From NCBI RefSeq assembly GCF_030013205.1, contig NZ_CP122648.1: a stretch of DNA of 64,000 bases; one strand, 5' to 3'. The DNA comes from Escherichia coli. GTDB lineage: Bacteria > Pseudomonadota > Gammaproteobacteria > Enterobacterales > Enterobacteriaceae. The position numbers and the translations under genes were made by a program. This document shows positions 38,357 through 59,141 of the stretch, piece after piece (within the stretch, counting starts at the first letter, position 1; the number at the start of each line of letters is the position of its first letter). Below the pieces are notes generated by a model that ran no database searches, was not told the origin of the DNA, and saw only the letters and a list, made by a program, of their open reading frames with translations.

Positions 38357-38360
38357 TTTG

Positions 38361-39285: not shown

Positions 39286-39546
39286 TTAATTCTGAGGTAA
39301 AGGCAAACTCATCTGATTGTTTCCCCTGTGTGAAGCTGGTAGCTCATGCCACGGGATACCTTCTGAAGAGTGAACGCCGGAGGCGTGTTTCGATGTGAAT
39401 TTATGGAAAGCTTCCAGTGTTGAGAAGCATACGCCGCATTCCAGATTGTTACACTGGTAATACTTTTGCCGCACGGTGTTTGAATCATTTTCCGGACGAC
39501 TTGTGCGGATACGGGCAGATGCGCCACAAAGCGGACAACGGAACAT
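39286..39546 (-). CDS. ogr: Ogr/Delta-family zinc-finger late-gene activator
   Basis: N-terminus MFRCPLCGASARIRTSR...YYQCNNLECGVCF matches the Ogr Cys4 motif. Confidence 0.85.
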   Translation of the reverse strand: MFRCPLCGASARIRTSRPENDSNTVRQKYYQCNNLECGVCFSTLEAFHKFTSKHASGVHSSEGIPWHELPASHRGNNQMSLPLPQN

Positions 39547-39737: not shown

Positions 39738-40760
39738 ATGGGAAGAGATATAACGCTGTACCCTAAAAAAGCAACTAGAAACGAACTTAAAAATTACCTT
39801 GAAAATTTAGGTTTTAAAAGGTGTAAACATTTGTGGGAATGGCCCCAAGGAACGTTGAATTACTCTTGGTTTGATGATACGGACTTCAAATCTACAGATG
39901 GAGTTTCGGCTGATATATATCCTGTTTCAAATGACGAATTACACATATCTGGTAATAAATGGGCATTGCATGTGCGTAATTTATATAGCGCTAGTTGGCA
40001 TGATGTAAAAATGCTTAATGATGTTCTAAAAGGCGCAAGGAGTCTTTTTGGTGGAACACTTATAGGTGATTATGGGAAAAATAGGTACGCTCCTCTATGG
40101 AAGGATTCTAGTAGTCCGATCAGTCGTGGCATTTCTTCAATATTTAATCATGTCCATCATGAGATTTCCGCTGTTAAACATGCCTTACCTGAACCTTCTA
40201 TTAAATTAAACCTACCGGAAGATGGCGGCTTATCCGAATACTTTGATTACATGCAATGTATGGATCCCAGTAGAGTTATATATAATGGATTAGTACCTTT
40301 TGCGGTTGCTATGTTTGAATACTTTTTCTCTAGAGCTTTTCAAATACTTATAAAGTACGATCCTTTCGCAATAGCAAAAAGAACATCGTATAAGCAAAAA
40401 GTTGATTTTGATATTCTGCTTGAGATAGAGAAAGGAAATATTTCAATAGAAAGTGTTATTGCAAGAAATTACACTTTTCAAAACTTAACCCACCTAAACA
40501 AAGCATATAAAGAGTGGCTGGATATAGATGTGAGAGCGATTCTTTATAAGAAAAAAAGAATTGGAAAATCAGTTGATTTTCTTGAGAATCGAATTTCTGA
40601 AATCATACAATATAGACATGGGATAGTTCATCACTTTGAGTTGGATAGGACCTTAAATCGGGATGGATATATTCATATATTAGATGCGCTAGAAAAAAGC
40701 ATAATTGAATTTATCCATTACATAGAAGGCAAATACAAATTTAAATTAAATGCGTATTAA
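39738..40760 (+). CDS. hypothetical protein, 340 aa, strongly AT-rich accessory gene between ogr and D; no recognisable domain
   Basis: ORF track; opposite strand to flanking late genes; own AT-rich upstream region with direct repeats; hairpin terminator after stop. Confidence 0.6.
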   Translation: MGRDITLYPKKATRNELKNYLENLGFKRCKHLWEWPQGTLNYSWFDDTDFKSTDGVSADIYPVSNDELHISGNKWALHVRNLYSASWHDVKMLNDVLKGARSLFGGTLIGDYGKNRYAPLWKDSSSPISRGISSIFNHVHHEISAVKHALPEPSIKLNLPEDGGLSEYFDYMQCMDPSRVIYNGLVPFAVAMFEYFFSRAFQILIKYDPFAIAKRTSYKQKVDFDILLEIEKGNISIESVIARNYTFQNLTHLNKAYKEWLDIDVRAILYKKKRIGKSVDFLENRISEIIQYRHGIVHHFELDRTLNRDGYIHILDALEKSIIEFIHYIEGKYKFKLNAY

Positions 40761-40880: not shown

Positions 40881-41990
40881 TCACTCTGTTTCTGCTATCC
40901 ATTCCGGGATTTTTGCCTCAAGCTCAAGCTGTGTGGTAAAGCCGCTGTTATCAATGGTGTGCTCGGCTTTCGCAATAATCCAGTCCTGATTATCAATCTC
41001 GCTTTTAAATCCTGTTACCGTGCCATGCATTTCGGGGTAGAGTTCTGCACGTCCACGCACCAGCGTGATGGAAAACGATGCGGCTCCGCGTTGTAGCTGC
41101 TGCCACTTTGCCGCCGCTGCGCGTCTTGCTGCCTGCTCGTTCTGATAAGTCTTGCGTAACACAAACACATTGCCTTCCGCGCCTTCCATATAATCACCTT
41201 CACGGCTGCTGCTTTTCTCCTTTTTGGGTTTTGGCGGTTTGCGGCGTTTCACGCTGACTTTTTTCTTTTTCCCGTAATTAAGATCAAGCCAGTAAGCGCG
41301 TACCCCCGTATACGCCTCGCGGTCAGCAATGCGGAACTGATGGCGATCGCCGCTGCTGCGTGTGATGGCGAACGATGGCAACGGCTGGCCCTGTGCGTTC
41401 ACGCCACCGCCGGGCATGATGAATAACAGATTACCGCTTTTTACCGTGGTGATTGCGCCCAGCATTTCCGCCATGCGCGTAAGGAAGGACATGTCGCTTT
41501 CTTCAGTCTGGTCGGCGTGGTCGATTTCGATATCCATCAGCATTTCGCTGATTTGCGGTTTCAGGCCGTACCGATGAGCGATGGCGGATACCACACGTTC
41601 AACGGTCACATCATGCCAGGACGCCTCACGTTTAACATTAAATTCATCCCGAAAATCTGCGCTTCTGGCTGAAACAGTCAGCCTGTCCGGCGGTCCTTCG
41701 TGAGCGATTTCATCAATAATGTAAGTGCCTTTTTCTGTCAGCGGTTCCCCTTTCCAGCCAATGAGAACCGTCAGACGCGCGCCCCGTGGCGGTAGCTGCA
41801 ACTGGCCATCGGCATCATCCAGCGTGATGGTGAGCTGGTCCGCCTCAAATCCCCGGTTGTCGGTCAGTGACAGGCTCATCAGGCGTTCTGCCACGCCGGA
41901 CAGCGTTTTACCCTCGGCGAGAATATCAAAATCCGGCATTTTCACGGGGTCTGTGCCCTGACTGAGCAATTGCATGGTGGTGTCGGTCAT
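40881..41990 (-). CDS. D: P2 gpD-like tail protein (late control D)
   Basis: similarity to P2 D (LSLTDNRGF..., DGPPD, RSADFRD); start chosen at ATG 41990 with GAGGGA RBS, track ORF extends to 42122. Confidence 0.85.
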   Translation of the reverse strand: MTDTTMQLLSQGTDPVKMPDFDILAEGKTLSGVAERLMSLSLTDNRGFEADQLTITLDDADGQLQLPPRGARLTVLIGWKGEPLTEKGTYIIDEIAHEGPPDRLTVSARSADFRDEFNVKREASWHDVTVERVVSAIAHRYGLKPQISEMLMDIEIDHADQTEESDMSFLTRMAEMLGAITTVKSGNLLFIMPGGGVNAQGQPLPSFAITRSSGDRHQFRIADREAYTGVRAYWLDLNYGKKKKVSVKRRKPPKPKKEKSSSREGDYMEGAEGNVFVLRKTYQNEQAARRAAAAKWQQLQRGAASFSITLVRGRAELYPEMHGTVTGFKSEIDNQDWIIAKAEHTIDNSGFTTQLELEAKIPEWIAETE

Positions 41991-42147: not shown

Positions 42148-43332
42148 ATGAGTGAAACTCGTTTTCATGGTGCCCGTGTTACGGAAAATACCGACCTGGT
42201 AACAGCGATTAACGATGTTGATTCCAGCGTTATCGGTATCGTGGCAACGGCGGATGATGCGGACGCGAAGCTGTTCCCGCTGAACAAGCCCACATTGCTG
42301 ACCCGCGTCAATGACGTGCTGGGAAAATGCGGAACAACGGGGACGCTTTATCGTGCGCTTAAGGCCATCGCAGACCAGGTGAGCACAAAGGTGATCGTCG
42401 TTCGCGTGGCTGAACACAAAGAAGAAGACGGAAAGACGCAGGATCAACTGGTTATCGGTGGTTCTGAGGATGACGGCAGCTATACGGGGATGTATGCGCT
42501 GCTTGTTGCAGAGCAGGATGAAAGCATCGGATACCGTCCGCGTATTCTGGCCGCGCCGGAGCTGGACACGGAGGCTGTAACAAAATCCCTGTGCGTGATT
42601 GCAGGTAAACTGCGCGCGTTTGTGTATGCCTCATGTCACGGCTGTAACACGATGGCTGAGGCGATTACCTACCGCCAGAAATTCAACGAACGTGAGGTGA
42701 TGCTCTTATGGCCGGACTTCATCGCCTACAACCCGAAAAGTGGCAAAAACGAAACGTTCCCCGCGCCTGCCTATGCGTGCGGCCTTCGTGCGTACATTGA
42801 CCATGAGCAGGGCTGGCACAAATCGCTGTCCAACGTTCCGGTTAAAAATGTGCTGGGGATGTCCAGGCATGTGTTCTGGTCGTTGCAGGCCGAAGACAGT
42901 GATGCCAACAGCCTCAACAACAAAGAAATCACGACCATTATTCGTCGCAACGGGTTCCGCTTCTGGGGCAACCGCACACCGGAAACGAACGCCTACATCT
43001 TTGAGGTGTATACCCGAACCGCACAGGTGCTGGCTGATTCAATTGCGGAAGCGCAGTTTGAAACCATCGACAGTCCACTGACGCCTGCGAACGTGAAAGA
43101 TGTTATCAGTGCCATCAGGGCAAAACTGGATTCACTGGTTACTGCCGGGAAACTGATTGGGGCGTCGTGCTGGTATGACGTGGTGGATAACGGCACCACG
43201 AATTTACGTCAGGGGCGCGTGCGTATTCGCTACAAATATACGCCTGTTCCCCCGCTGGAAGACATGGAGCTTTACCAGTCGTTTACTGATGAATTCTTTG
43301 GTCCCGCATTTGCGGTGCTGGGAGGTGCCTGA
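42148..43332 (+). CDS. FI: P2 FI-like tail sheath protein
   Basis: 394 aa contractile tail sheath sequence. Confidence 0.9.
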   Translation: MSETRFHGARVTENTDLVTAINDVDSSVIGIVATADDADAKLFPLNKPTLLTRVNDVLGKCGTTGTLYRALKAIADQVSTKVIVVRVAEHKEEDGKTQDQLVIGGSEDDGSYTGMYALLVAEQDESIGYRPRILAAPELDTEAVTKSLCVIAGKLRAFVYASCHGCNTMAEAITYRQKFNEREVMLLWPDFIAYNPKSGKNETFPAPAYACGLRAYIDHEQGWHKSLSNVPVKNVLGMSRHVFWSLQAEDSDANSLNNKEITTIIRRNGFRFWGNRTPETNAYIFEVYTRTAQVLADSIAEAQFETIDSPLTPANVKDVISAIRAKLDSLVTAGKLIGASCWYDVVDNGTTNLRQGRVRIRYKYTPVPPLEDMELYQSFTDEFFGPAFAVLGGA

Positions 43333-43844
43333 TGGCTGTACCAAAACATCTTCGCTTTTTTACGCTGTTTGTGGATGGTGAAAACGAAGTGGGTAAGGTG
43401 ACGTCCGTCACTCTGCCTAAGCTGACGCGCAAAACCGACAGCTACCGGGGTGGTGGCATGATGGGTGCGGTAAGTATTGATCTCGGTCTGGACGACTCCG
43501 CGCTTGATGCGAGCTTTGTCATGGGGGGCGCAGTTCGTGAGCTGTTCCTTAAGTATGGCGGCACGATTGACGGCACGCTGCTGCGTTTTGCGGGTGAATA
43601 CTACACCGATGCAGAAAGCGACCTGTATGAAGTCGAAATGCGCGGACGTGTGACGGAAATTGATATGGGGGAAGCCAAACAGGGCGAAGCCACATCACAC
43701 ACTTACGCCATTAAAAACACCTACTACAAGCTGAGTGTTAACGATCGCCCGTTGTGGGAGATTGACCTGCTGAACTTCATTTACCGGAAGGACGGCAAGG
43801 ACATTGTGCCCGATCGCATCCGTTCCGCGCTCGGGCTTGGCTGA
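43332..43844 (+). CDS. FII: P2 FII-like tail tube protein
   Basis: 170 aa; start overlaps FI stop. Confidence 0.9.
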   Translation: MAVPKHLRFFTLFVDGENEVGKVTSVTLPKLTRKTDSYRGGGMMGAVSIDLGLDDSALDASFVMGGAVRELFLKYGGTIDGTLLRFAGEYYTDAESDLYEVEMRGRVTEIDMGEAKQGEATSHTYAIKNTYYKLSVNDRPLWEIDLLNFIYRKDGKDIVPDRIRSALGLG

Positions 43845-43899
43845 TAAGTAATATGCAGGCGGCGCAGTGCGTCGCCTCTGACTGAAAAGGAGACAACTG

Positions 43900-44274
43900 A
43901 TGAAAGACATCGATACTGAAACCCGGAATAACACCGTGGCGGATGATGTGACGGCAGGTGAGGATATGGCTGTCGAACATGGCGTAAAACTGACCCGACC
44001 AATTGAGCGTGGTGGCGAAAAAATCACGTATGTGGAGATCACCGGGGCTATTGAACAGGCTGGATCCCTGCGTGGTCTGTCGCTGTCTGATGTGCTGAAT
44101 CTGAAAGCGGATACCATGTTCACGCTGTTGCCTCGCGTGACCTCGCCACGACTGGATGAAGTGATGATTAAAAAAATGTCGTCACGCGATTTTATTCAGT
44201 TGTGCGCTGTGGCTGTAAATTTTATGAGCGAGCCAGACTCTGGCGCGAAGAGCGTGCAGGAGACGGCAGCGTAA
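43900..44274 (+). CDS. E: P2 gpE-like tail assembly chaperone
   Basis: 124 aa; position between FII and tape measure. Confidence 0.8.
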   Translation: MKDIDTETRNNTVADDVTAGEDMAVEHGVKLTRPIERGGEKITYVEITGAIEQAGSLRGLSLSDVLNLKADTMFTLLPRVTSPRLDEVMIKKMSSRDFIQLCAVAVNFMSEPDSGAKSVQETAA

Positions 44275-44438
44275 TCACCCTGGTGTGCTTTGAGCACATC
44301 GAAGATCTGGTGGCAGATATCGCCGCCATTTTTAACTGGTCGCCCGCCGAAATCTTCATGATGACGCCCGGCGAAGTGGTTAGCTGGCGTGAGCGGGCGG
44401 CACTTCGCAGCGGGAATGCAGACAATGAAGACTCTTGA
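44202..44438 (+). CDS. -1 frame extension (E'-like) overlapping E 3' end and T start; candidate programmed frameshift product E+E'
   Basis: open -1 frame across the E/T junction; candidate slippery heptamer AAATTTT near 44217-44223. Confidence 0.5.
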   Translation: MRCGCKFYERARLWREERAGDGSVITLVCFEHIEDLVADIAAIFNWSPAEIFMMTPGEVVSWRERAALRSGNADNEDS

Positions 44439-47232
44439 CATCCGGGTCGCTTTCAGCGCCGTTGACAGGCTGACCCGGCCTGCCGAAAACGCCCGCCGCC
44501 TGATGGGGCAGTTTGGTGACTCCATCCAGCGAACGCAGGGGGCGATCAAAAATCTCGAGCGTCAGGCGCGTTCATTTGAGCGCGCCCGTGACGCTGTCAG
44601 TAAAGCGGATGCTGGCATATTGAAAGCACGACGCCAGCTTAACGCCCTTAATCAGTTACAACGCACGGGTACAGTGCTCAGCGAAAAACAACAAAAGCTG
44701 ATGCAGCAGTTAAGCACCCGGCTTGAACGCCTGAATGAATCGCGCACACGGGAAATTCAGAAAATGCGGGAGCTTGGCGGAGAGCTGAAACGCCACGGCA
44801 TTTCCCTGACAGGCAGCGATAACACCATCCAGCAGGCCATCAGACGCACCGAACAGTACAACAACCAGCTTGAACGCGAACGGCAGGCGCTTGCGCGTGT
44901 AACACGGGCGCGTGAGCGGTATTCGCGCGCGCAGGAAACAGCGGGAAAACTGAAAACAGGTGGTGCGCTGGCAATTGGTGCGGCAACGGCGGGCGGCTAT
45001 GCTGCCGGGCGTTTTTTGCAGCCTGCGATCGGGTTCGGCAAAGAGATGTCCCGCGTTCAGGCACTGACGCGAATCGACAAAAACAGCCCGCAGTTTAAGG
45101 CGCTGCGTGAGCAGGCGTTAAAACTTGGCTCTGAAACACAGTTTACTGCGAGTGATGCCGCCAGTGGGCAGAGCTTTCTGGCAATGGCTGGTTTTACTCC
45201 GCAGGCCATTCAGGCCGCATTGCCCGGTGTTCTTAATATGGCGCTGGCAGGTGGCGTCGAACTCGGCGAGACGGCTGATATAGGCTCCAATATCCTCACA
45301 CAGTTCAACCTGACAGCCGATCAAATGGACCGTGTTGGCGATACGCTGACAGCAGCATTCACCCGGACCAATACTGATTTACGCGCGCTGGGCGAAACCA
45401 TGAAGTATACCGGTCCGGTTGCCGCAAAACTTGGTATCAGTCTTGAAGAAGCGGCGGCCATGGCCGGGATGCTTGCCAATAATGGTCTTCGCGGAAGCGA
45501 TGCTGGTACGGCCATGCGCGCAAGTCTGTCCCGCCTTGCATCACCGCCAAAAGCTGCGGCTGATGCACTGAAAGAGCTGGGGGTGTCAGTTGCTGACGCC
45601 AGAGGCAAAATGCGCCCGATGGAGGATGTGCTGCTTGATCTCTATAAGGCGACACAAAAATACGGACAGGTGGACCAGGTTTCCTTCTTCAAGGACATCG
45701 CCGGAGAAGAGGCGTTCGTTGGTTTGCAGACGCTTGTTGCGGCGGCTGGTTCAGGAGAGCTGCAAAAACTGACCAGAGAATTGCAGGGGGCAAGGGGAGA
45801 GGCCGATCGCGTCGCAAAAGTAATGGCCGATAATCTTGATGGGGACCTGAAAAATCTCGACAGCGCATGGGAAGGTCTTCGTATTCGCATCAGTGATCTG
45901 GTTGACGGTCCGCTGCGTTCTGTCACGCAGTGGCTCACGCGGGTGCTTGAAAAAATCACCTCGCTGGCGCAGGCCCATCCGGTACTGACGCGCCAGCTAC
46001 TGATAGCAGGCGGTGCGTTGCTGGCAATGACTGCAACGATTGGCTCGTTGTCGCTGGTTATTGGGGTGCTTTACGGGAAGCTGGCCACCCTGCGTCTTGG
46101 TTTTGACATTCTTACCCGGTCAATGAATGTCGTCAGGGTGTTGCCTGCGCTGTGGGGAATGGTGACGGGTTCCGTTTCTTTACTGGGAGGCGCCATCGGG
46201 GCGTTGTTCAGTCCGGTTGGTCTTATCGTGGCTGCGCTTGCCGGAGCTGCCGTTCTTATCTGGAAATACTGGGATCCCATCAGGGCATTTTTTGCCGGGG
46301 TGTTCAGCGGGATTATGGAAAGGCTGACCCCGTTGCGCGAAACCTTTGAACGGTTTGGTCCTGTTTTTGACACAATCGGAAGCGGGATCAGCCAGGTGTT
46401 TAACTGGTTTAAATCGCTGCTGTCACCGATGGAGTCCAGCAAGGAAACGCTGGATAAATGTACCAGTGCTGGCGAGATATTCGGTAACGTTCTTGGCGGT
46501 GCGTTACAGCTTGTTCTGACACCTGCAAAAATGCTACTGGATACGCTGGCGTGGATACTTGAAAAACTTGGCGTCCTTCCGGATGAAGCGGAAAGGGCGC
46601 GCAAGAAAATCGAAGACGCACAGCGTGCGGCCATTCTTCAGGACAAGGTTGTCTTGCTTCAGGGTGACCTGGCGAAAATCAATCCGCCGAAGCCTGTGGA
46701 AAATGGCAATGGCACCGGAGGTAATAAACCCAAAGACAACAAACCGCTCACAGACAGCAATACCGGGACGCTACGCAGACTCAGCAAAATTGCTGATAAC
46801 ACAGGTAAGCTGGTTGATGAGACGAAAAAACGCATTGGCCCCGGCGATATTGTCTTTAAGAACCTGCCCCGCGCACTTGCTGTTCGTGGAGAGTGGCAGG
46901 AGCGGAAGATTGCGCAGGTCAGTAAGCCTGCCCCCGCAATTAATATCACACCCGTGGTCCCGGCTCCGCTGCCTCCGGCGCTGGTCCCTGTTGTTGCGGC
47001 CAGCTCCCGCCCGGTGGCGGAGGCCATACGATCTCCAGTGGCATCAGTTCCTGTAACTTCCCGTAACCGGGAGCCTGTTGCCTCCGGATTTGGTGGTGAA
47101 ATTCATGTTCATCTGCATAACGTTGTTACGCAGAATCCCCGCGAACTGGCGAAACTGGTCGGTGAAATGGTCAGGGCAGAAATGGAACGGCGCGCCCGTG
47201 CCGGGCGTGGCAGTTTTTACGATAAAGATTGA
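44389..47232 (+). CDS. T: P2 gpT-like tail tape measure protein (true start probably 44416 or 44425)
   Basis: 947 aa, coiled-coil and Gly/Ala-rich membrane-like segments typical of tape measure proteins. Confidence 0.9.
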   Translation: MSGRHFAAGMQTMKTLDIRVAFSAVDRLTRPAENARRLMGQFGDSIQRTQGAIKNLERQARSFERARDAVSKADAGILKARRQLNALNQLQRTGTVLSEKQQKLMQQLSTRLERLNESRTREIQKMRELGGELKRHGISLTGSDNTIQQAIRRTEQYNNQLERERQALARVTRARERYSRAQETAGKLKTGGALAIGAATAGGYAAGRFLQPAIGFGKEMSRVQALTRIDKNSPQFKALREQALKLGSETQFTASDAASGQSFLAMAGFTPQAIQAALPGVLNMALAGGVELGETADIGSNILTQFNLTADQMDRVGDTLTAAFTRTNTDLRALGETMKYTGPVAAKLGISLEEAAAMAGMLANNGLRGSDAGTAMRASLSRLASPPKAAADALKELGVSVADARGKMRPMEDVLLDLYKATQKYGQVDQVSFFKDIAGEEAFVGLQTLVAAAGSGELQKLTRELQGARGEADRVAKVMADNLDGDLKNLDSAWEGLRIRISDLVDGPLRSVTQWLTRVLEKITSLAQAHPVLTRQLLIAGGALLAMTATIGSLSLVIGVLYGKLATLRLGFDILTRSMNVVRVLPALWGMVTGSVSLLGGAIGALFSPVGLIVAALAGAAVLIWKYWDPIRAFFAGVFSGIMERLTPLRETFERFGPVFDTIGSGISQVFNWFKSLLSPMESSKETLDKCTSAGEIFGNVLGGALQLVLTPAKMLLDTLAWILEKLGVLPDEAERARKKIEDAQRAAILQDKVVLLQGDLAKINPPKPVENGNGTGGNKPKDNKPLTDSNTGTLRRLSKIADNTGKLVDETKKRIGPGDIVFKNLPRALAVRGEWQERKIAQVSKPAPAINITPVVPAPLPPALVPVVAASSRPVAEAIRSPVASVPVTSRNREPVASGFGGEIHVHLHNVVTQNPRELAKLVGEMVRAEMERRARAGRGSFYDKD

Positions 47233-47238
47233 GGAGTC

Positions 47239-47733
47239 ATGGCCATGATGATGATCTACGGCATGTTTGTTTTTGAGCTGCGCACGCTGCCGCATCAGCA
47301 GTTACAGCAAAACAAAAGCTGGCGGCATGTGAAAAATGAACGCGTTAACCGTTCAGCAAGCTGGCAGTATATCGGTGCAGGTGATGATCGCATCGTTCTT
47401 TCTGGTGTGCTTTATCCTGAAATTACAGGTGGCGAAGTGTCGCTGTCGCTGCTGACCACGCAGGCGTATACAGGACGCCCCTGGCCTCTTATTGATGGCG
47501 TCGGGCAGATTTACGGCATGTATGTCCTGACCGAAACGAATACGACCCGTTCCGAGTTTGATCGCTACGGTAAGGCGAAAAAGATAGAATTTTCACTGAC
47601 CCTTGAACGCTGTGATGAGGATTTGCGGGAGCGCCTGCAATCCTCATCGTTCAGCGATATGCTGTCCGGCTTCAAAGATAAAGTGACATCATCCCTTAAC
47701 AGCGCGGCCAGTTCAGTTAAAGGGCTGTTCTGA
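47239..47733 (+). CDS. U: P2 gpU-like tail protein
   Basis: 164 aa; N-terminus and WQYIGAGDDRIVLSGVLYPEITGG match remembered P2 U. Confidence 0.85.
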   Translation: MAMMMIYGMFVFELRTLPHQQLQQNKSWRHVKNERVNRSASWQYIGAGDDRIVLSGVLYPEITGGEVSLSLLTTQAYTGRPWPLIDGVGQIYGMYVLTETNTTRSEFDRYGKAKKIEFSLTLERCDEDLRERLQSSSFSDMLSGFKDKVTSSLNSAASSVKGLF

Positions 47734-47903: not shown

Positions 47904-48467
47904 ATGCTGAATAATAGAGATATGAATATTAATGAACTTAAAGATTGTATTCACTATGAAGTAATCGGTAGCGAGCGTCCTTTCTCCTGGCGAAAGGCAA
48001 TTGTTCGCGCAATAAAACATAGAAGAGTTCGTTATTTATTTTGGTGGCGCATAGCCAAATACCTTTTTGATAAAGGCGGATACTGTCGGAAGATTGCGGG
48101 GAAAATAGAACGTTTCATTCTTGATAAATATAATGTAACAGTCCCTTTAACTGTAAATATAGGGAAAGGCTTTGATATTTCTTATCTCAACAGTGTTGTT
48201 ATCGGTCACAAAGTAACAATCGGTGAAAATTGTTCAATAAAACCAGGGGTAACTATTGGGCTGCGTGGTGATTTTAATGATATGGATATTGTTATAGGAC
48301 ATAATGTGACCATTGGTTGTAATGCCACCATTCTTGGTGGCAAAGTGCGTATAGGAAACAATGTCACAATAGGTGCTCATGCATTGGTATTGCATGATAT
48401 TCCAGATGATTCAACATTCATCACTAAATTTCAGTCTGAAGTTATCTGCTCGTCCTCCCGCACATAA
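47904..48467 (+). CDS. hexapeptide-repeat acyl/acetyltransferase; AT-rich accessory gene, possible surface-polysaccharide modification
   Basis: 187 aa with repeated [LIV]GxxxxIG hexapeptide motifs; 3' end overlaps tfa by 37 nt convergently. Confidence 0.7.
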
Positions 48468-49048
48468 CCCTGATTCATCAGCTCTGGCCATACGATATCC
48501 GGAGCTGTACTGGTGTCAATTCTACTCACTAATACTCTGTATTTTCTCCAGGAATCCAGTTGTGAATTTTCCTCGTTTGTTGCTATTTCAAGATTAACTG
48601 CATCCTGCAGAATTGCGATGTTATCTGTTGCTTCCTGGATCAACCTTGCCTTTTTCTCTTCCGCTTCCCGTATCCGAAACAGTTTTTCTGCTTCCTCATC
48701 CTTCACCCAGGATACGCCGTCCCACTTCTGATACTCCCCTGCTGGCGACAACCAGGTGACATTCTCTGGTAGCGGTCCGGGTTCAGAAATAAACAACGCG
48801 TCCCCCGATGCCACGTCATAGACCGTTTTACCACGATGGTCTTCAACAATATTCCACGATTCATTTTCACTGTTAAAAACTGCCACAAAGCCAGCAGGAA
48901 TTTCCGGTGGGGCGATATCTGTAGAATTGGCTGGCAGCCCTGTATGAGGTGGAATATATGCGTCACCTTCACCAATAAACTCATTAGTTCCGGCCAGCAG
49001 GTTATAAATTTTTACAGTACGTGATTGTTCACTCATTCTGAATGCCAT
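48431..49048 (-). CDS. G: tail fibre assembly protein (lambda Tfa / P2 gpG type)
   Basis: 205 aa; N-terminus [34 protein letters not shown] matches remembered lambda Tfa. Confidence 0.9.
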
Positions 49049-49400
49049 TATGCAAGCCTCACAATATAATTAAATGCGATGTTTTTAACGGTGTTTTCCG
49101 CGTTACCAGCAGCGTTAACGGTGATGGTGTGTCCATGTGAACCAATCGCAACAGAGTGCGTATGAGCGCCAATAGCTGATTGAGTGTGACGCCATACGCC
49201 CCACGGACCATCAGTGCCATTCCACTTATTGGCGAGTTTACGCATGTATACATTGCCGTCTCTCGTGATAAAACGTTGCGTGCCTGCAAAATTGCCAGCT
49301 GCAAAAACCTCAAGCACACCGACAGCATTATCTTCCGGGAAATTTTTCTCCAGTGTTGCGTTGGTGGATGTTGCTTTAGACCAGATGCCAGTGCATCAGC
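49048..49400 (-). pseudogene. H: C-terminal fragment (about 117 codons) of tail fibre protein (gpH/Stf type), 5'-truncated
   Basis: frame open from stop near 49400 to ...[19 protein letters not shown]; no start codon or N-terminal domain. Confidence 0.75.
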
Positions 49401-50033
49401 GTTCGCATACTTACCCGCGTGCGCCACGGTGTTGTCCATGTTACGGGAGGTCAGCGTCACGTCATTCATAACGCGTTCGCTGGCGTCGGTTCTGATGTGC
49501 TCCAGCCACCCCACGTTAACGTCCTGAAGCAACTTGTTGGTGCTGAAGTTGGACTCATCCGCGTGAGACGTGCCGTTGAAACCGATCATGATTCGGTCAA
49601 GCGCCACCTGTCGGGCAATCTGTGCGCTGATGCGGGACTGAAAATCGCTGTGTGCCGACCAGGCATCAAGCTGCGGATACGAAATAAACGTGTCGTAGTT
49701 CACCTGTTCGCACTGGTATTTGCGGTTTTTCAGATCAACCACGTTATTCGGGTTACGGCGTTTTGTTCCGTCATAACTGGTATTCGTGCGCGCAATCGGT
49801 CCTGTGGTATCCAGGAGGATTTTTTCGCCCTTCTGGTCGGTCACGCCGATCACGTTAATTCTTTTTGTAAATTCGGTGCTTTCCTTTGAGGCGTTTTCAA
49901 AACGCTGCTGTACCGAGGGTTCCACGGTAAATCGCGATACCAGTGCGGAAACCGGGATATTGTTAAGCGACGCCTGCTGCGCCATATAGCAACCCAGCTT
50001 GTTGCGGGTAATATCTGACATCACCAGATTCAT
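49400..50033 (-). pseudogene. N: major capsid protein gpN, N-terminal about 210 codons only, fused out of frame to tail-fibre fragment
   Basis: homology to P2 N (FTVEPSV, NKYxCEQ, IMxGFNG) ends near HAGKYANADALASG; track ORF 49059..50033 continues in a non-homologous frame. Confidence 0.75.
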
Positions 50034-50056
50034 AAAAAATTTGCTCCTTTGTCTTA

Positions 50057-50893
50057 TCAGAAGTCAGCCAACTGGTCGGAGGCTGCGCCTGTTGCGGTGA
50101 ACCGGTTCTGCGGATCGCCGTCCTGCGTGCGCAGTTTTTCCTTCAGTTCTGCCAGCTCTGTGGTCAGTAAAGTGATTTTCTGGCTGTCCTGCTGATGGCG
50201 GGTTTCCAGCACATTAAAACGGTCGATAATGTCGGCCTGTGACGTTGCGACACCTTCCACCGCTTCCTGAATACGGGAGAAACTGGCGTCATCCGCTTTG
50301 CGGCCACGGCCAATAATCCCCATAACGCGGTTAAACCACTGGGTGCCTTCCTCCTGACGTTGTTCGGTGAGTTCGATAAGTTCTGACTCCATAGCGGCGG
50401 TAAACATCGCCACGTCTCCCTGCTGACAGTTGAATGTCATCAGTTGCATACGTTGTTGTGCCGCAAAGGCCAGACGTTCCGTGCCCAGGCTGGCGGGGGT
50501 GTCGGTCATTGCCAGCCCGCGCAGGTAAGGGCCTCCCGTGATGGTTGACTGTGGTTCCAGCTCAATACTGGAGTAAATTTTTTTACCATCGTTAAGCAGG
50601 GACATCATGCGAGCGGTCGGCTCAATTTCGGCATACAGTGCCGTGCGACCTGCCAGCGGGCCATCGGTTATGTCTTCGGTGCTCAACCCCACAACATCGC
50701 CCATAGCGGAAAACTCGCTACCGGGGAGTGGTGACAGGATGTGCTCAATATTCACACGTGCACCATAAACGGACGGGTTATAACTGGTGGCGGCAGCTTT
50801 CAGCATGTCGCCGTTGATTTCGCGCCCGTCTGCCGTTACACCGGAGACAGCCACGCGAAACTTTTTGCGGGATGTCTTTTTTTCATTAGCCAT
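50057..50893 (-). CDS. O: P2 gpO-like capsid scaffolding protein/protease
   Basis: start chosen at MANEKK with GAGGGG RBS; track ORF extends to 50926. Confidence 0.85.
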   Translation of the reverse strand: MANEKKTSRKKFRVAVSGVTADGREINGDMLKAAATSYNPSVYGARVNIEHILSPLPGSEFSAMGDVVGLSTEDITDGPLAGRTALYAEIEPTARMMSLLNDGKKIYSSIELEPQSTITGGPYLRGLAMTDTPASLGTERLAFAAQQRMQLMTFNCQQGDVAMFTAAMESELIELTEQRQEEGTQWFNRVMGIIGRGRKADDASFSRIQEAVEGVATSQADIIDRFNVLETRHQQDSQKITLLTTELAELKEKLRTQDGDPQNRFTATGAASDQLADF

Positions 50894-51047
50894 AGTTTTT
50901 GCCCCTCTGACTGGTTCTTCAGTCATGATGGCAAAGCGTAACAGGCTGATACAAAGGGCTTTTGTTGTAAGAAAACAGTCAGAACAGGGGGTTAAGGAGA
51001 ACGGTTTCGCGCGCGGGTAATCTTCCTGTAATTACTCAGGGGGAGCA

Positions 51048-52799
51048 ATGATTCAGGACGCTTTTGTGCGCCAGCGTGCGCGACAACTTTACTGGCAGGG
51101 TTATCCGCCCGCAGAAATATCACGTCTGATGGGAATAAACCCGAACACGATTTATGCGTGGAAAAAACGCGACCAGTGGGATGAAACGCCACCCGTGCAG
51201 CGTGTCACGCAGTCCATCGATGCGCGCCTCATCCAGCTTACTGAAAAACAGAATAAAACAGGCGGTGACTTTAAGGAAATAGACCTGCTGACCCGGCAGC
51301 TTAAAAAACTGCATGATGGCCAGCCGGATGTGACGGCCACAGGAAAGAAAGGCCGGGCGAAAAAACTCAAAAATCATTTCACGCCGGAACAGATTGCCGC
51401 ACTGCGGGAAAAAATCATCAGCAGGCTGGAGTGGCATCAGCGGGGCTGGTTTGACTCCCTGACCCTTTGCAGGGAAGCCGGGATACGTAACAGGATGATC
51501 CTGAAATCCCGACAGATTGGGGCGACCTGGTATTTTGCACAGGAAGCACTGCTGATGGCGCTGCGTGACGATGTGGCGCAACCTTACCAGCGTAACCAGA
51601 TTTTTTTGTCTGCGTCGCGTCGTCAGGCGTTCCAGTTTAAAAGCATTATTCAGAAGGCCGCGGCTGAAGTTGATGTGGAGCTGAAAGGGGGCGATAAAAT
51701 CATCCTCTCCAACGGCGCAGAGCTGCATTTTCTCGGCACTTCTGCTGCGTCGGCACAGTCCTATACGGGCAATTTTTATTTTGATGAATTCTTCTGGGTC
51801 AGTCGCTTTGCTGAACTGCGCAAGGTGGCTGGCGCTATGGCAACCCTCAGCGGACTGCGGCGCACCTACTTCTCCACGCCATCCACCGAAACGCACGAGG
51901 CATACGCCTACTGGAACGGCGACCGCTGGAACGAGAAAAAGGCCACGCATAAACGCCAGCGTTTTTCTGTGGACTGGAAAACGCTGCATAACGGGCTTAT
52001 CTGCCCTGACCGGACGTGGCGGCAAATTGTCACGCTGGAAGATGTGGTTAATCACGGCTGGAAACACACCGATATTGACGAAATCCGTGATGAAAACACC
52101 GAAGACGAGTTCCTCAATCTCTATATGTGTGAGTTTGTTCGCGAAGGGGAATCGGCATTTAACCTGAATATCCTGATTGGCTGCGGTGTTGACGGATACG
52201 ACGACTGGAAAGACTGGAAACCTTTTGCTCCCCGCCCGATGGGGAATCGTCCGGTATGGATTGGGTATGACGCAAACGGCAGCAGTGGCAACGGCGACAG
52301 CGGCGCTGTGTCCGTGGTGGTTCCTCCGGCTGTTCCTGGTGGCCGTTTTCGAACGGTGGAGACGCGACGCGTTCAGGGGCTGGAGTTTGAAGAACAGGCC
52401 AGAGTCATTGAAGAGTTCACGTATCGCTACAACGTGGAACACATCGGCATTGATGTGACGGGCGGGAACGGGGAGGCTGTTTATCAGATAGTGAAACGGT
52501 TTTTCCCTGCTGCTATTCCGTACACCTTCACGCTGTCATCAAAACGGTCGCTGGTACTGAAAATGCTGCAAATAATGCGTGCCGGGCGGTGGGAATACGA
52601 TCGCGCCGAACGCGAGCTGGTCGCGGCCTTTAACGCCGTGCGTAAGGTGAAAACACCGGGCGGCTTTATCACTTACGAAACGGACCGCGCGAGGGGGATC
52701 AGCCACGGCGACCTTGCGTGGGCAACCATGCTTGCTGTCATTAACGAACCGATTGGCGGCGAAGGAGAAAACGAGCGTTTCACGGTTATGGAGTTCTGA
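51048..52799 (+). CDS. P: P2 gpP-like terminase large (ATPase) subunit
   Basis: 583 aa; divergent from O as in P2. Confidence 0.85.
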   Translation: MIQDAFVRQRARQLYWQGYPPAEISRLMGINPNTIYAWKKRDQWDETPPVQRVTQSIDARLIQLTEKQNKTGGDFKEIDLLTRQLKKLHDGQPDVTATGKKGRAKKLKNHFTPEQIAALREKIISRLEWHQRGWFDSLTLCREAGIRNRMILKSRQIGATWYFAQEALLMALRDDVAQPYQRNQIFLSASRRQAFQFKSIIQKAAAEVDVELKGGDKIILSNGAELHFLGTSAASAQSYTGNFYFDEFFWVSRFAELRKVAGAMATLSGLRRTYFSTPSTETHEAYAYWNGDRWNEKKATHKRQRFSVDWKTLHNGLICPDRTWRQIVTLEDVVNHGWKHTDIDEIRDENTEDEFLNLYMCEFVREGESAFNLNILIGCGVDGYDDWKDWKPFAPRPMGNRPVWIGYDANGSSGNGDSGAVSVVVPPAVPGGRFRTVETRRVQGLEFEEQARVIEEFTYRYNVEHIGIDVTGGNGEAVYQIVKRFFPAAIPYTFTLSSKRSLVLKMLQIMRAGRWEYDRAERELVAAFNAVRKVKTPGGFITYETDRARGISHGDLAWATMLAVINEPIGGEGENERFTVMEF

Positions 52800-53845
52800 T
52801 GAGCAGAAAAAATAAAAAAGTGCGCATGAGTTCACGCATTGATCTCGCTGATGCGCTCAGGAAAGAATCATCGCTCAGTGCATTCACATTTGATGGTCCT
52901 TATCGCCTGACCGGGCATGACCTGCTGGACAATATGTACTGTGCTGATAACGGGCGGTGGTATGAAACCCCGGTGGACTGGTACGGTCTGGCAAGAGCAG
53001 CCCGGCAAACGTCCTGGCATCAGTCTGCGCTTTACTTTAAGCGCAATGTATTACTCGGTTGCTACATCCCGCACCCGCTGCTTTCCCGGCAGGATTTCTC
53101 GGCGCTGGCGCTGGACTGGTTTGTGTTCGGTAACGCATTCCTTGAGCTTCGAAGCAATATGCTCGGCGAACCGCTTAAATTACGGCACGCACTGGCGAAA
53201 TACATGCGACGCGGAAGCGATCTTGAATCATGGTGGTATGTGCAGGATGGCAAGGACGCGTTCCAGTTTCGCCCTGGCAAAGTGTGCCACCTGATGAATC
53301 CGGACATTAACCAGGAAATTTACGGCATGCCGGAATATCTTGGCGCATTACTCTCGGCAAGCCTGTCTCATTCGGCGGACATGTTCAGAAAACTGTATTA
53401 CGACAATGGATCCCACGCCGGGTGCATTATCTACATCGGTGCAGCGCAGGTAAACCGCGAAAGCATGGACTCCCTGAAAGAAACGCTACAGGGTGCGCGT
53501 GGTGGTGGTGCGTTTAAAAACGTGCTCATTCATGCGCCCAACGGGGGCAAAGAGGGGGTGCAAATTTTGCCGTTCCAGCAGATCACCGCAAAGGATGAGT
53601 TCATGAATGTTAAGGCGGCATCCCGTGATGATGTGCTGGCTGCGCACCGCGTTCCGCCGCAACTGATGGGGGCGATGCCGGGTGAAAAAAGTGCGTTTGG
53701 TGATGTGGAGAAGGCCGCGCGGGTTTACGCAATTAACGAGCTGATGCCCGTCATGGAGGCCATGAAGCACATCAATGACTGGCTTGGCGAAGAGGTGATC
53801 CGCTTTAACCCTTACGCACTGTTAGACACCCAGCCCACATCCTGA
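52799..53845 (+). CDS. Q: P2 gpQ-like portal protein
   Basis: 348 aa; start overlaps P stop (TGATG). Confidence 0.85.
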   Translation: MSRKNKKVRMSSRIDLADALRKESSLSAFTFDGPYRLTGHDLLDNMYCADNGRWYETPVDWYGLARAARQTSWHQSALYFKRNVLLGCYIPHPLLSRQDFSALALDWFVFGNAFLELRSNMLGEPLKLRHALAKYMRRGSDLESWWYVQDGKDAFQFRPGKVCHLMNPDINQEIYGMPEYLGALLSASLSHSADMFRKLYYDNGSHAGCIIYIGAAQVNRESMDSLKETLQGARGGGAFKNVLIHAPNGGKEGVQILPFQQITAKDEFMNVKAASRDDVLAAHRVPPQLMGAMPGEKSAFGDVEKAARVYAINELMPVMEAMKHINDWLGEEVIRFNPYALLDTQPTS

Positions 53846-53862
53846 CGCGCTTCGCTTGTCTG

Positions 53863-54966: not shown

Positions 54967-55278
54967 TTACTCAGGAAATAACGCCCGGATATTCCCAGCC
55001 ATCTGGCTGGTTATCTTAGCCACTGGTGCAGACTGTGCTTCAAACTTTTTTGAGCTGATTTGTGTCACAGGTAACATCTCATCATCAGCCCATGCGGCCA
55101 GTCGGTAAGCCTCTGCCGGATTCGTCTTCAGAAGTGCCAGCCCGGCCAGAAAAGCCACGCGTTGGCCGCTTTTGCGGGCTTCTGGTGTAAGGCTGTCCAG
55201 CCAGGCGCATGCTTCTCCTTCGTTCTTGACGGCAGCTGGCTTCAGATAGAAACTTATCCGTCTGGTTGGTGTTGTCAT
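54967..55278 (-). CDS. ParR-like DNA-binding adaptor, about 104 aa from MTTPTRRISFYLK
   Basis: resembles remembered plasmid R1 ParR N-terminus (RRTIAFKL...LDSIPQGERSRLNRAALTAGLALY vs RRISFYLK...LDSLTPEARKSGQRVAFLAGLALL); AAGGAG inside parM 3' end. Confidence 0.6.
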   Translation of the reverse strand: MTTPTRRISFYLKPAAVKNEGEACAWLDSLTPEARKSGQRVAFLAGLALLKTNPAEAYRLAAWADDEMLPVTQISSKKFEAQSAPVAKITSQMAGNIRALFPE

Positions 55279-55282
55279 TGGT

Positions 55283-56242
55283 TTACTCCTTGTCCATTGC
55301 GTACAGCCCATTAACCAGAGCAAACTGTGGCACCCCGTCCGCGATGAAAGTCGCATTAACTCCGCAGGCTTCGCGGATAGCGGGTGCCACAATCTCCGCC
55401 CCGCCACCGACAACCATCACCCGCCCGTAACCCGAAAAACCCGCCAGCGCGCGGATCACGCGTTGTTTCAGTGTTTCTTCCTTTTCACGAATAACCGCCA
55501 TCAGGCTGGCGTAATGCGCGTCATTGTGGATGTGCTGGCGCAGCCAGGCTTCATCATGGCGATGTTCGATAATGGTATTGGCGATGTGGTGACTGGTACG
55601 CATACCGTTAGTGGCCATCACCGACAGTACGGCATCGGCCATCAGGGAAACGCCTACGTGTGGATCGCAAAACACCTGGCTGATACCTGCCAGTTGTCCC
55701 TGAACCTTTGCCACATCCAGCGTGGTTCCGCCTAAATCCACAATCAGCAGGGATTCAAACGGACTCATGTCAGCCAGTGCTTTAAAGCCAGCCGGAATGG
55801 ATTCAGGCATAACCCGTACGTTACGGATAGTGAATGCTTCGCCGTTCTGGTACTCCACCGGGCGCATGACGTTCGCTTTTTTGCGGTTGATGTTGGCCAT
55901 GTCCGGCTGTGCGTTTGTGTCGAAATATTCGCTCAGTGGCAGGGTGACAACCACATCCACTTCCTGTGGTGTGATGCCTGATTTGACCAGCGCGTGATGA
56001 ATGGCAATGACATTCACATCGCTGTACTGGTATTGCGTGTCGGTCGTCTGGACAAAGCGATCGCTGACCGGATCAAAACCATAGCGCACGCCATCAAGCA
56101 TGTAGTTCGCGGGCTGCGTGCCACCGAACGGCGCAGACCATTCCGACTTGAAGCTGTTCGGGCTGATGGCGTTGCGGCGTTCGCCGTTCTCAGTCCATGC
56201 CAGCTTGATGTTGGTGGAGCCGTCATCGATACAAATTTTCAT
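55283..56242 (-). CDS. ParM/StbA-like actin-family ATPase
   Basis: 319 aa; N-terminal MKICIDDGSTNIKLAW and LIVDLGGTTLD phosphate-binding motifs as in plasmid R1 ParM. Confidence 0.75.
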   Translation of the reverse strand: MKICIDDGSTNIKLAWTENGERRNAISPNSFKSEWSAPFGGTQPANYMLDGVRYGFDPVSDRFVQTTDTQYQYSDVNVIAIHHALVKSGITPQEVDVVVTLPLSEYFDTNAQPDMANINRKKANVMRPVEYQNGEAFTIRNVRVMPESIPAGFKALADMSPFESLLIVDLGGTTLDVAKVQGQLAGISQVFCDPHVGVSLMADAVLSVMATNGMRTSHHIANTIIEHRHDEAWLRQHIHNDAHYASLMAVIREKEETLKQRVIRALAGFSGYGRVMVVGGGAEIVAPAIREACGVNATFIADGVPQFALVNGLYAMDKE

Positions 56243-56272
56243 GTCGCTTTTCCTTATGTTGATTAATTAATC

Positions 56273-56383
56273 GCTTACGGGATTCTGAAATCCCGTTTTT
56301 GCCTGTTTTATGCGCGCTTCATATATCGCGGCGCGTTTTTTGCTCATTTACGGGATTTGTGAATCCCGTTTCTGTCTGTTTTT
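56273..56383. repeat. two about 37-bp direct repeats, each a hairpin followed by a T-run (ACGGGATTCTGAAATCCCGT TTTTGCCTGTTTT; ACGGGATTTGTGAATCCCGT TTCTGTCTGTTTTTT)
   Basis: seen in sequence upstream of parM-like gene, second copy inside 3' end of A. Confidence 0.5.
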
Positions 56384-59141
56384 TGTTTCCACTGGTCAGG
56401 CCTCCCCGCAGCAGGTCTGCTTTGCGGCGGGCGCGTTCAGTGGTTTCACTGATTCTCTGTGCGTGCTCTGCGTCGCGGATGGCGCGCAGCATGTCAGAAA
56501 GCACGGTAACGGGTGTTTTCATGGTGTTCTGGTCCTGCTGAAGTGTGGATGCCAGGCGTGCGGCGGCTTCGGGGTCTGATGCCCCCAGCTGTTCCAGATA
56601 GCTGGCGACCGGGTTATGGCGGATCTCCGTGCTGCTTACGCCGTGGTTACGGCTCAGGCGCTGCCAGAGCTGCGTGATCCGGCTGTCCGGTCGGGTATCC
56701 GGTTTGCGTACAATTTCAAATCCCTGCGGTGCAATGATGCTGCCGTCGACGTACAGACTGCCGCCCCGTAACAGGTGCTGCATCTGCTGTTCACCGATAT
56801 GCAGGCCGAGAGATTCAGCAGACTCCCGCCATTCTTTAGCGAGTAACTCGTGGTTATCAGGCAAAGGCCGTGGCTGTTTGCGGCTCTGTGTCCAGTTCTG
56901 CATTTCATCACTGCTGTTTTTTGCCTGTTTGTCACGCAGCGAACGCATCAGCGCCCGGCGTTCGTGCCGTTTCAGTGAGCGCATCCATTCATTCACGTCA
57001 ACGCCGTCAGGAAGCTGCGGCCACGGTGCTGGCCGTTCTTCCGGCTGTTCTGTCCCGTTGTTGTCCGTTTCCTGTACACGGGGACAGTTATTGCCACGAG
57101 TCCAAGGGGCGGCAGGGCCGCCCTGAAGGTCAAAACCATTTTCGCGGGCGCTGTCTTCCGCTTCCGGTTTACGTCTTACCAGCTTCCAGTTATCCGGATG
57201 TGTGCACACACGGGAAGACTCCCCGATGAGCGGTGACCAGATCCCGTAAATCTGTACGCTCTGTTCGCCGTAATCGTTCAGCTCATCTGCGAGGTCGTAG
57301 GCGGTGCGAATCAGGTAGTCTTTGCGTGGAACAAGTACGCCGCCCTGTTTTTCAATGTAGGAGGCAAAACACCCGGCATCAGCGGCAGCGAGCACTGCAT
57401 CCATTGCGTCATCCTTCAGTCGTTGCGGGCCTTCCGGGTTGCGTGCCATCTGGCTGGCAAGGCGGCGCAGTTCACGCCACACCTGACGGGAGGGGATGCC
57501 AAAGAACTGGAACTGGCGGACCCGGTGAAGGCGCGCCCAGCCGATGGCGCGCTCCACGCTCTCGGCCATTGATTTTCCGGTTTCGTGGTCAACGCGTGGC
57601 TTGCCCGTTTTCGGGTCGATACCATCCACGGCGCGGCTGTCCAGGTTCTTTCCGATGTAGGTGGCGATGTAGCTGGTTGGCGTGCCTTTTGAGCCGTCGA
57701 CGTACTCCGCCTTAAAACGCGGAGTTATGTCATCGCCCAGCTCGTGGCGGTCTTCCTGAATGGCAATATCGCAGACGTGGGACACGATGGTTTCAATCTC
57801 GTCCGGATGTGCAAAGACCATCATATGCCAGTGCACAGTGCCGTCATGGTGAGGCTCCACCGTGCGGATGCCATACCAGCGAAGACCGTCGCGGTTCAGT
57901 TTTTTGCGGACCGCCGCAAAAAACGTGTTAACCAGGTAATCGCTGGAGTCGCGCATGGTGGCCCCGTTCCATTTGGGATTCGGATGACCGTTCTCTGTTG
58001 TGGCGTGGTATTTTGACGGGCAGGTGACAGTCAGAAACACCGCTCTGTCGCCACGGGCTTCGGCCAGAAGTTCCAGTCCCTTCATGGTGGCCATCATTTC
58101 TGCCTTACGGTGAACCGGGTTACTTACTCCCGCGTAATACACCGTCTCGAGATCAATCGTGAACCCGTCTTCATTTTCCAGCATGAAACTTTTCAGGAAA
58201 TCGCGTGTTTTCTCGCGCTGTGCGCGAAACTCGCTTAACGCGTCCTGGCTCAGATAGGGTGATGTTTTTCTGGAAACCAGACAGGCGGCGCGGAGTTGTT
58301 CTTCTCTCCACTCGCAACGTAACAGCCACAGTTTGCGTTTCCACCATTCCGCACAGGTCAGGCGAAGGATTGCGCCCGGCAGCAGCTCCGTGTCCGGTTC
58401 GTTCCTCCGGTCTTTGTCTGTTGTCAGTGCGTCATAATGTGGAGGCATGGCGTGCAGGTGTAACGCCATGCGGGCCAGCATCTGATACGCCTTCAGCGTT
58501 ACATCCATGGTCAGTTCGCCATCAGTAGCGCCAAAGCCATCGCAGAGTTTTTCGAAGGTGCTGCTGAACATCGCCGCCGTCATGGTGGCCAGCGTCTGTA
58601 TCTGGTGTTTGTTGAGCTGCGGCAGGTAAAGCAAATCGTCCAGGCGTTCGCGTCCGGCAAGGGAGCGATAACCCGGTGTCAGCCAGCGGTGATCGGTGCG
58701 GTCCAGACGTTCGAATATTTTGCGCAGGGTTCCGCGCGCGTAGCGTTCCGCCTGCCAGCTCTTTTTGCCTTTCTGACGATCGGCTTCCTGCTTCTTGCGC
58801 AGGAAGGAGAGGTGGCGAATAAGCGGATCGCGCAGATAGGACGGCAGCAGGCGCAGCGAGGCCATGGCTTCATCCACCGCGCCGCGTGCCTGTTTTCTGG
58901 CGTCTCCTGCCAGTGTGATGGTTTTGTCCTGTTTTTCCTGTGCGTCCAGGCTTTTATTAATCAGGTTGCCCAGCGGCGTGGCGGAGAACGCCGCATCAGC
59001 CATTTCCTGGCGGCGCTCGTTCTCTACCCGGTAGGCATCCAGCCAGGAGGAAAGCGCGGATTCAGGAGCGGAGATCCCCGTTCCTTCACGCCCCACTGCG
59101 TGGCGCGGTTGTTGCCAGTCCCTGATGTACTCTGCCGTCAT
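56319..59141 (-). CDS. A: P2 gpA-like replication initiation endonuclease, extended (940 aa)
   Basis: rolling-circle Rep motifs and tyrosine region; about 180 aa longer than remembered P2 A. Confidence 0.85.
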   Translation of the reverse strand: MTAEYIRDWQQPRHAVGREGTGISAPESALSSWLDAYRVENERRQEMADAAFSATPLGNLINKSLDAQEKQDKTITLAGDARKQARGAVDEAMASLRLLPSYLRDPLIRHLSFLRKKQEADRQKGKKSWQAERYARGTLRKIFERLDRTDHRWLTPGYRSLAGRERLDDLLYLPQLNKHQIQTLATMTAAMFSSTFEKLCDGFGATDGELTMDVTLKAYQMLARMALHLHAMPPHYDALTTDKDRRNEPDTELLPGAILRLTCAEWWKRKLWLLRCEWREEQLRAACLVSRKTSPYLSQDALSEFRAQREKTRDFLKSFMLENEDGFTIDLETVYYAGVSNPVHRKAEMMATMKGLELLAEARGDRAVFLTVTCPSKYHATTENGHPNPKWNGATMRDSSDYLVNTFFAAVRKKLNRDGLRWYGIRTVEPHHDGTVHWHMMVFAHPDEIETIVSHVCDIAIQEDRHELGDDITPRFKAEYVDGSKGTPTSYIATYIGKNLDSRAVDGIDPKTGKPRVDHETGKSMAESVERAIGWARLHRVRQFQFFGIPSRQVWRELRRLASQMARNPEGPQRLKDDAMDAVLAAADAGCFASYIEKQGGVLVPRKDYLIRTAYDLADELNDYGEQSVQIYGIWSPLIGESSRVCTHPDNWKLVRRKPEAEDSARENGFDLQGGPAAPWTRGNNCPRVQETDNNGTEQPEERPAPWPQLPDGVDVNEWMRSLKRHERRALMRSLRDKQAKNSSDEMQNWTQSRKQPRPLPDNHELLAKEWRESAESLGLHIGEQQMQHLLRGGSLYVDGSIIAPQGFEIVRKPDTRPDSRITQLWQRLSRNHGVSSTEIRHNPVASYLEQLGASDPEAAARLASTLQQDQNTMKTPVTVLSDMLRAIRDAEHAQRISETTERARRKADLLRGGLTSGNKKQTETGFTNPVNEQKTRRDI

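Follow-up and report, generated by a model that had tools for sequence, protein, structure and literature searches.

Two deletion junctions mark a probable swine-lineage, defective P88-like prophage of Escherichia coli

The 64-kb stretch of Escherichia coli DNA analyzed here (hereafter the window) contains a prophage that very probably is the real and recent remnant of a larger one: a defective P88-like element of a swine-associated lineage, in which an internal deletion, amounting to 9,074 bp and leaving two joins, has scarred an ancestor of about 36.2 kb and has since been inherited vertically, most simply from a single ancestral deletion. An earlier note on this DNA had described one deletion that fused the capsid gene N to the 3′ end of the tail-fibre gene H; two junctions (A and B) are found instead, and N is joined to an internal segment of the fibre (residues 258-330). 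The exact parent is represented by proxies, and the flanks of the best reference are 99.4-99.7% identical to the sequence retained here. The features at the scar are the following:

48431..49048, minus strand: tfa, tail-fibre assembly gene, intact (205/205 aa, 100% identity by tblastn)
49048..49174, minus strand: H remnant, piece 2, the last 41 codons (residues 845-885) and the stop (blastn against three intact references)
49173..49174, no strand: junction A, with a 2-bp microhomology (TA); 1,545 bp lost inside H, equal to 515 codons and in frame, taking residue 330 to residue 845
49173..49390, minus strand: H remnant, piece 1, residues 258-330, the first "pyocin knob"-type repeat; 218 bp, 100% identical to intact fibres
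49388..49390, no strand: junction B, with a 3-bp microhomology (CCA); 7,529 bp lost, from H codon 257 back to N codon 216
49388..50033, minus strand: truncated major capsid gene N, codons 1-215 of 350 kept (tblastn, PHROGs, and the list of open reading frames)

Alignment by blastn with the intact prophage of VG38-53E1 (NZ_CP128578) divides the window into three collinear blocks, not two: window positions 40885-49174 correspond to reference positions 13696-21975, positions 49173-49390 to 23519-23736 (100% identical), and positions 49388-59625 to 31263-41499. The same gap sizes are obtained with the late region of E1739 (NZ_CM180506), where identity is 99.4 and 99.7% in the flanks and 100% in the middle piece. 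The size of the junction A gap is the same for VG38-53E1, E1739, and phage vB_EcoM-613R2, and the N breakpoint at 49388 is reproduced by phages 500465-2 and P884B11. The two junctions lie 215 bp apart, with junction B joining capsid codon 215 to fibre residue 258. At the base level, neither junction has foreign DNA, an insertion sequence end or remnant, a repeat, an inverted repeat, or a target duplication, and a scan for promoters and terminators near the junction found no signal over shuffle expectation worth interpreting. Together, the 27,162 bp retained and the 9,074 bp lost give a reconstructed ancestor of 36,236 bp, a size that fits intact P88-like genomes (35.8-37.1 kb).

Gene N starts at 50033 on the minus strand, where it opens a chimeric reading frame of 324 aa (49059..50033). 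The intact capsid protein of VG38-53E1 matches the window over residues 1-215 of 350 (50033..49389; tblastn, E 9e-142), and the first 215 residues of the 324-aa product are identical to the intact N protein of E1739 (350 aa), with nothing in common thereafter. In the PHROGs comparison, residues 5-221 cover positions 1-212 of the major head protein profile, which has 345 positions. The end of capsid homology, which the earlier note had placed at about 210 codons, thus falls after exactly 215 of 350 codons in both the tblastn and the E1739 comparisons. The frame of N reaches its stop at 49059-49061 and the frame of the fibre at 49048-49050; the fibre frame is offset by 2 nt from that of N, and the read-through from N into fibre sequence is therefore out of frame, as had been proposed.

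The remnant of H comprises 114 codons, is open over 49048-49392, and finishes at the natural stop of the fibre. The fibre gene carries internally repeated "knob" modules, and the remnant is a composite of residues 258-330 and 845-885, which are non-adjacent in the 885-aa intact fibre. The earlier note had N running into the last ∼117 fibre codons, but the remnant is not a contiguous C-terminus. An intact tfa does follow, as stated before; its 205-aa product is 100% identical to the intact-prophage protein, and its accession is common to intact and defective prophages. In the carrier genomes, RefSeq marks all three pieces (N and the two fibre fragments) as partial pseudogenes, with the name "pyocin knob domain-containing protein" given to piece 1.

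With the proteins of the intact relative as tblastn queries, there was no match at E ≤ 1e-5 in the 64-kb window for M, L, X, holin, endolysin, LysB, LysC, R, S, V, W, J, or I, nor for the P88-type DNA invertase. All genes between N and H had been described as absent, and these thirteen late genes are indeed without a match across the window; none of them turns up elsewhere in the element. The genes found at full length in the window by tblastn are ogr, D, FI, FII, E, E′, T, U, the acetyltransferase, tfa, O, P, Q, the partition protein, ParM, A, cox, and C, and several of these have RefSeq protein accessions identical to those of intact prophages. The proposed retention of the sheath, tube, tape-measure, and accessory genes is supported by these full-length matches. 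Outside the scar, the element and its border are laid out as follows:

37298..37316, no strand: attL core, AAAATCCTTGTTGATGAAA, 19 bp, a copy of the pdxB 5′ end and the longest direct repeat shared by the flk and pdxB borders of the element in ETEC1748
37463-38356, minus strand: TagO-like protein, cargo next to attL (297 aa, "TagO" annotation, phrog_1848)
38361-38702, minus strand: zinc-ribbon protein, cargo next to attL (phrog_6586)
38958-39095, minus strand: Hok/Gef toxin, cargo next to attL (RefSeq annotation of the K_EC180 and ETEC1748 loci)
39289-39546, minus strand: ogr late activator (RefSeq annotation, tblastn, PHROGs)
39738..40760, plus strand: 340-aa cargo open reading frame in the variable slot between ogr and D (weak Pfam match to HEPN_RiboL-PSP, E 3.7e-4, residues 181-329)
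40884..41990, minus strand: tail gene D, full length (tblastn with D of P88_4B11, 369/369 aa, 98.9%)
42148..47733, plus strand: tail operon FI (sheath), FII (tube), E, E′, T (tape measure), U, intact (full-length tblastn, 96-100%; E is a divergent allele, 75%; also intact by RefSeq annotation of K_EC180 and ETEC1748)
47922..48467 (from 47904 in one listing), plus strand: LbetaH (left-handed beta-helix) acetyltransferase-like cargo gene (181/181 aa, 100%, the same as WP_001447286.1 in intact prophages; phrog_2154)
50060-50893, minus strand: scaffold/protease O, intact (full-length tblastn)
51048-52799, plus strand: large terminase P, intact (full-length tblastn)
52799-53845, plus strand: portal Q, intact (full-length tblastn)
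54967..59141, minus strand: partition protein, ParM, and replication endonuclease A, full length (RefSeq annotation, tblastn)
62436-62723, minus strand: cox (tblastn, 100%)
62837-63157, plus strand: repressor C (tblastn, 100%)
63254-64000, plus strand: int, codons 1-249, cut by the window end (tblastn, 99.6%)

The names of the attL-side cargo genes and ogr (37463..39546) rest on the RefSeq annotation of the K_EC180 and ETEC1748 loci (both 99.99% identical), on tblastn, and on PHROGs. The TagO, zinc-ribbon, and Hok/Gef genes (37463-39095, minus strand) are all conserved in intact P88-like phages. At the slot between ogr and D, VG38-53E1 has an unrelated 3.1-kb gene, E1739 has hxsBCA-type genes, and P88_4B11 has no gene at all. 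The 340-aa reading frame in this slot had neither a PHROG nor a PADLOC match, and PADLOC defence-system annotation of the cargo genes as a whole returned no matches; this reading frame is a candidate anti-phage or abortive-infection cargo gene. The acetyltransferase-like gene lies between U and tfa, and its 3′ end overlaps that of tfa by 37 nt. The O/P/Q block (50057..53845) matches at 98.6-99.7% by tblastn and shares its RefSeq protein accessions with the intact prophage of E1739. Homology with E1739 and P88_4B11 breaks at 54297-54953, between the portal and partition genes, and the ends of deposited phage genomes map nearby (∼54250-54430); this variable slot holds an 89-aa open reading frame (54333-54602, phrog_3941) that has no RefSeq annotation. 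The ParM and partition genes (54967-56242, minus strand) adjoin the replication gene A.

An intact repressor, cox, and int module had also been described. The repressor C (100/100 aa) and cox (95/95 aa) are complete, but only codons 1-249 of 334 of int lie inside the window, and the integrity of int is not readable from the window because it ends inside the gene (codon 249). These codons match without a frameshift by tblastn, and the gene is complete in the sister strain ETEC1748. K_EC180 is without one A at window position 63668, which creates a 1-bp frameshift in int, while the base is present in both the window and ETEC1748; the absence of this A from K_EC180 reflects either a mutation specific to that strain or an error in a homopolymer. 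Other differences in K_EC180 are a second single-base difference at 38927 and a substitution at 33499.

The consequences of this gene content can be predicted. Lacking a functional capsid protein as well as the small terminase (M) and the head completion protein (L), the element should form no filled heads; with no holin, endolysin, or spanins, there should be no lysis; and with no X, R, S, V, W, J, I, or functional fibre, there should be no baseplate or complete tail. The element is thus predicted to be unable to form virions unaided, while it should still confer repressor-based immunity and express its cargo, and it may excise and replicate.

To judge from its sequence, the element is a P88-like (Xuanwuvirus/Gemsvirus) Peduoviridae prophage, and not P2 itself. 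The best phage matches to window positions 36000-58000 by megablast are Gemsvirus 500465-2 (98.1%), Citrobacter phage Shae_phiSM (95.1%), and Xuanwuvirus P884B11 (94.5%), while most other Peduoviridae records give only patches at 80-90%. The backbone (Q/P, O/N, FI-FII-E-E′-T-U, D, ogr, int-C-cox, A, and ParM) is in P88-like synteny, and its retained parts are 94-98% identical at the nucleotide level to the P88-like phages P884B11 and 500465-2. The gene order is likewise that of these phages, with Q and P divergent from O-N, FI-U converging on the fibre genes, and then D-ogr, int-C-cox, and A-ParM-partition gene. The element differs from them in lacking 9.07 kb, from the C-terminus of N through most of H. 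A viable phage is not what remains, since the virion and lysis set is incomplete, with N cut at codon 215 and H reduced to 114 codons. P88 itself, a P2-like phage of a porcine ETEC strain, is inducible with mitomycin and forms plaques (PMC5285337); it has been listed among putative phage-plasmids, possibly with integrated and episomal states (Pfeifer et al., 2021; PMC7969092).

The earlier note had taken the element for a P2 prophage. Phage P2 shares with it the gene families Q, P, O, N, FI, FII, E, T, U, D, ogr, int, C, cox, and A, and the P2 fibre knob repeat has ∼66% amino-acid identity to the remnant found here. On the P2 map, H-G-FI through D are all co-directional, and there are no ParM or partition genes. 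Here, the FI-U operon is on the strand opposite tfa and H, which differs from the P2 order. Given this layout and the P88-like best matches, the P2 gene names apply by homology or analogy, not by identity.

The prophage sits between flk and pdxB, in the 5′ end of pdxB. Homology to P88_4B11 begins at 37298, the first base of the attL core, and the attR copy lies ∼441 nt past the window end, as read from the sister genome ETEC1748. The flk/pdxB-side host flanks in the 500465-2 record match those of this element. A chromosomal location between att repeats, with the host genes flk and pdxB at the borders, together with the loss of essential virion genes relative to intact relatives, points to a defective prophage. 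An R-type tailocin does not fit, as V, W, J, I, a functional fibre, and all lysis genes are gone and the head genes O, P, and Q remain; neither does a P4-like satellite, as P2-type A and ogr are present and the annotation includes no sid or psu genes. Other cryptic prophages made by internal deletion similarly have att core repeats at their borders and have lost essential morphogenesis and lysis genes while keeping immunity and cargo; particular to this one are the two microhomology junctions 215 bp apart in a gene set that is otherwise undamaged.

The closest intact relatives are prophages of E1739, with a late region 99.4-100% identical to that of this element, and of VG38-53E1 (97.6-100%). 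Both encode O, P, Q, FII, U, and acetyltransferase proteins identical to those found here, have the same fibre allele, and are complete from N through H, but they are integrated elsewhere (ihfA/btuC region). In the int and early region, identity drops to 94% (VG38-53E1) and 92% (E1739), and the E1739 int is a different protein. The fibre module also varies: this element has an invertase-less acetyltransferase-tfa-H arrangement, whereas P88_4B11 and 500465-2 have an invertible double cassette. At the acetyltransferase position, these two phages have a DNA invertase together with an alternative fibre/tfa cassette in inverted orientation, and the two arrangements are therefore alternative host-range modules at one locus.

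Among 5,426 complete E. coli genomes, the 3.8-kb junction region occurs as one piece at 100% identity in seven, all of swine origin: K_EC180 (Korea; PacBio and Illumina) and six Belgian porcine ETEC strains. Over 36.8 kb, the window and the chromosome of the swine isolate K_EC180 are 99.99% identical. No genome with only one of the two junctions was found among complete E. coli genomes, IMG/VR, or JGI metagenomes, and junction-spanning 32- and 34-mers were absent from the IMG/VR and JGI metagenome contigs. By sensitive blastn, the retained segment of truncated N and O has one locus in five of the seven carriers and two in ETEC4069 (NZ_CP122679) and ETEC4079 (NZ_CP122643); most carriers are therefore without a resident P2-type helper. 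The second locus in ETEC4069 and ETEC4079 is a possible second P2-like prophage, which could complement or recombine with the defective one.

Several alternatives to an inherited deletion scar can be weighed against these observations. Internally repeated knob modules can confuse assemblers, and a collapse over repeated fibre sequence could in principle have produced both junctions from a prophage that is truly intact. This is vanishingly improbable, given that the same sequence recurs in seven independently finished genomes, from two countries and different platforms, which excludes an assembly artefact; furthermore, the overlaps at the junctions are 2-3 bp and not repeats, the missing 9 kb is nowhere in the window, and five of the seven genomes have no other O/N-like locus. 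It is also very improbable that there was one deletion only, from N to H, with the 114-codon remnant as the natural, contiguous C-terminus of a shorter fibre allele in the parent. The highly mosaic nature of tail fibres and the in-frame join at 49173/49174 speak for such an allele, but the 353-bp remnant is contiguous (at least 80% covered) only in the same seven complete E. coli genomes out of 5,426, the best full-length tblastn match in ∼50,700 phage records reaches ∼70% and comes from misaligning the next repeat, and the 32-mer of junction A is among those absent from IMG/VR and the JGI metagenomes. In addition, an 885-aa fibre matches both pieces at 100% identity, with 1,545 bp between them.

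A dedicated recombination system has a similarly slight chance of having made the deletion, be it an insertion sequence or a fibre invertase of the Gin/Cin type that recombined misoriented sites. While the close relatives P88_4B11 and 500465-2 do carry a DNA invertase and inverted alternative fibre cassette beside U, the U-acetyltransferase-tfa-H variant is without either even in intact prophages; the window has no invertase homologue, the junctions have none of the marks of such events listed above, and the N breakpoint is far from any fibre crossover site. Maintenance of the remnant as a helper-dependent, satellite-like, or domesticated element, mobilized by a co-resident or incoming P2-like phage, is unlikely, though less remote than the readings above. 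The non-deleted genes are all undamaged (including int, as read in ETEC1748, cox, A, ogr, P, Q, and O), the cargo genes are kept, and the second O/N-type locus in two of the seven carriers could be a helper; however, simple recency of the deletion predicts intact retained genes equally well, the other five carriers are without a second P2-type capsid module, and a 19-mer taken as the P2 cos sequence had no match in the window with up to three mismatches allowed. A bolder combination, in which a single template-switching event left both junctions and the remnant, with its immunity, excision, replication, large terminase, portal, and scaffold functions and its possible HEPN-type defence gene, was selected as a helper-mobilizable, satellite-like element beside the P4-type island described below, is a long shot.

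We therefore return to the inherited deletion scar. On this account, two joins at 2-3 bp of microhomology removed 9,074 bp from an ancestor of ∼36.2 kb that was resident in the 5′ end of pdxB. The microhomology at the junctions is what suggests RecA-independent illegitimate recombination, or replication slippage or template switching, and the joins could have arisen by two successive deletions or in one complex event. The occurrence of identical pieces, annotated as pseudogenes by RefSeq, in seven genomes argues for one ancestral event within the lineage, which would have been followed by vertical inheritance within a single swine-associated E. coli lineage. That the retained genes are full length, with accessions shared with intact prophages, suggests that the deletion was recent. 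Disabling internal deletions are commonplace among E. coli prophages, and this one is ordinary prophage decay, with the fragments already flagged as pseudogenes in RefSeq. A literature search for this specific deletion returned nothing specific, only the K_EC180 genome announcement.

The two junction sequences provide a precise clonal marker for one swine ETEC/Stx2e-type lineage (7/5,426 complete genomes), and tools for prophage completeness should class the element as incomplete. The losses also bear on a neighbour: in five of the seven carriers, a nearby P4-type island is without a resident helper for capsid, baseplate, or lysis functions. This integrative island occupies window positions 629-8714, at tRNA-Arg(CCU) (the tRNA being 8640-8714), and includes the following genes:

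629-1630: second integrase of the island, P2-type, 53% identical to the P88 int
1633-4302: P4-alpha-type primase, 889 aa (phrog_1139, E 4e-302)
5297-5824: Icd-like gene
6378-6599: excisionase/HTH gene
7199-8503: island integrase

The island looks like a P4-type satellite or tandem islands, for which the natural helper would be a P2-like phage, the resident one being disabled. In ETEC1748, it extends to the left of the window, where it includes an ogr/Delta-like gene, a 423-aa "P2 family major capsid protein", MazEF, and intS.
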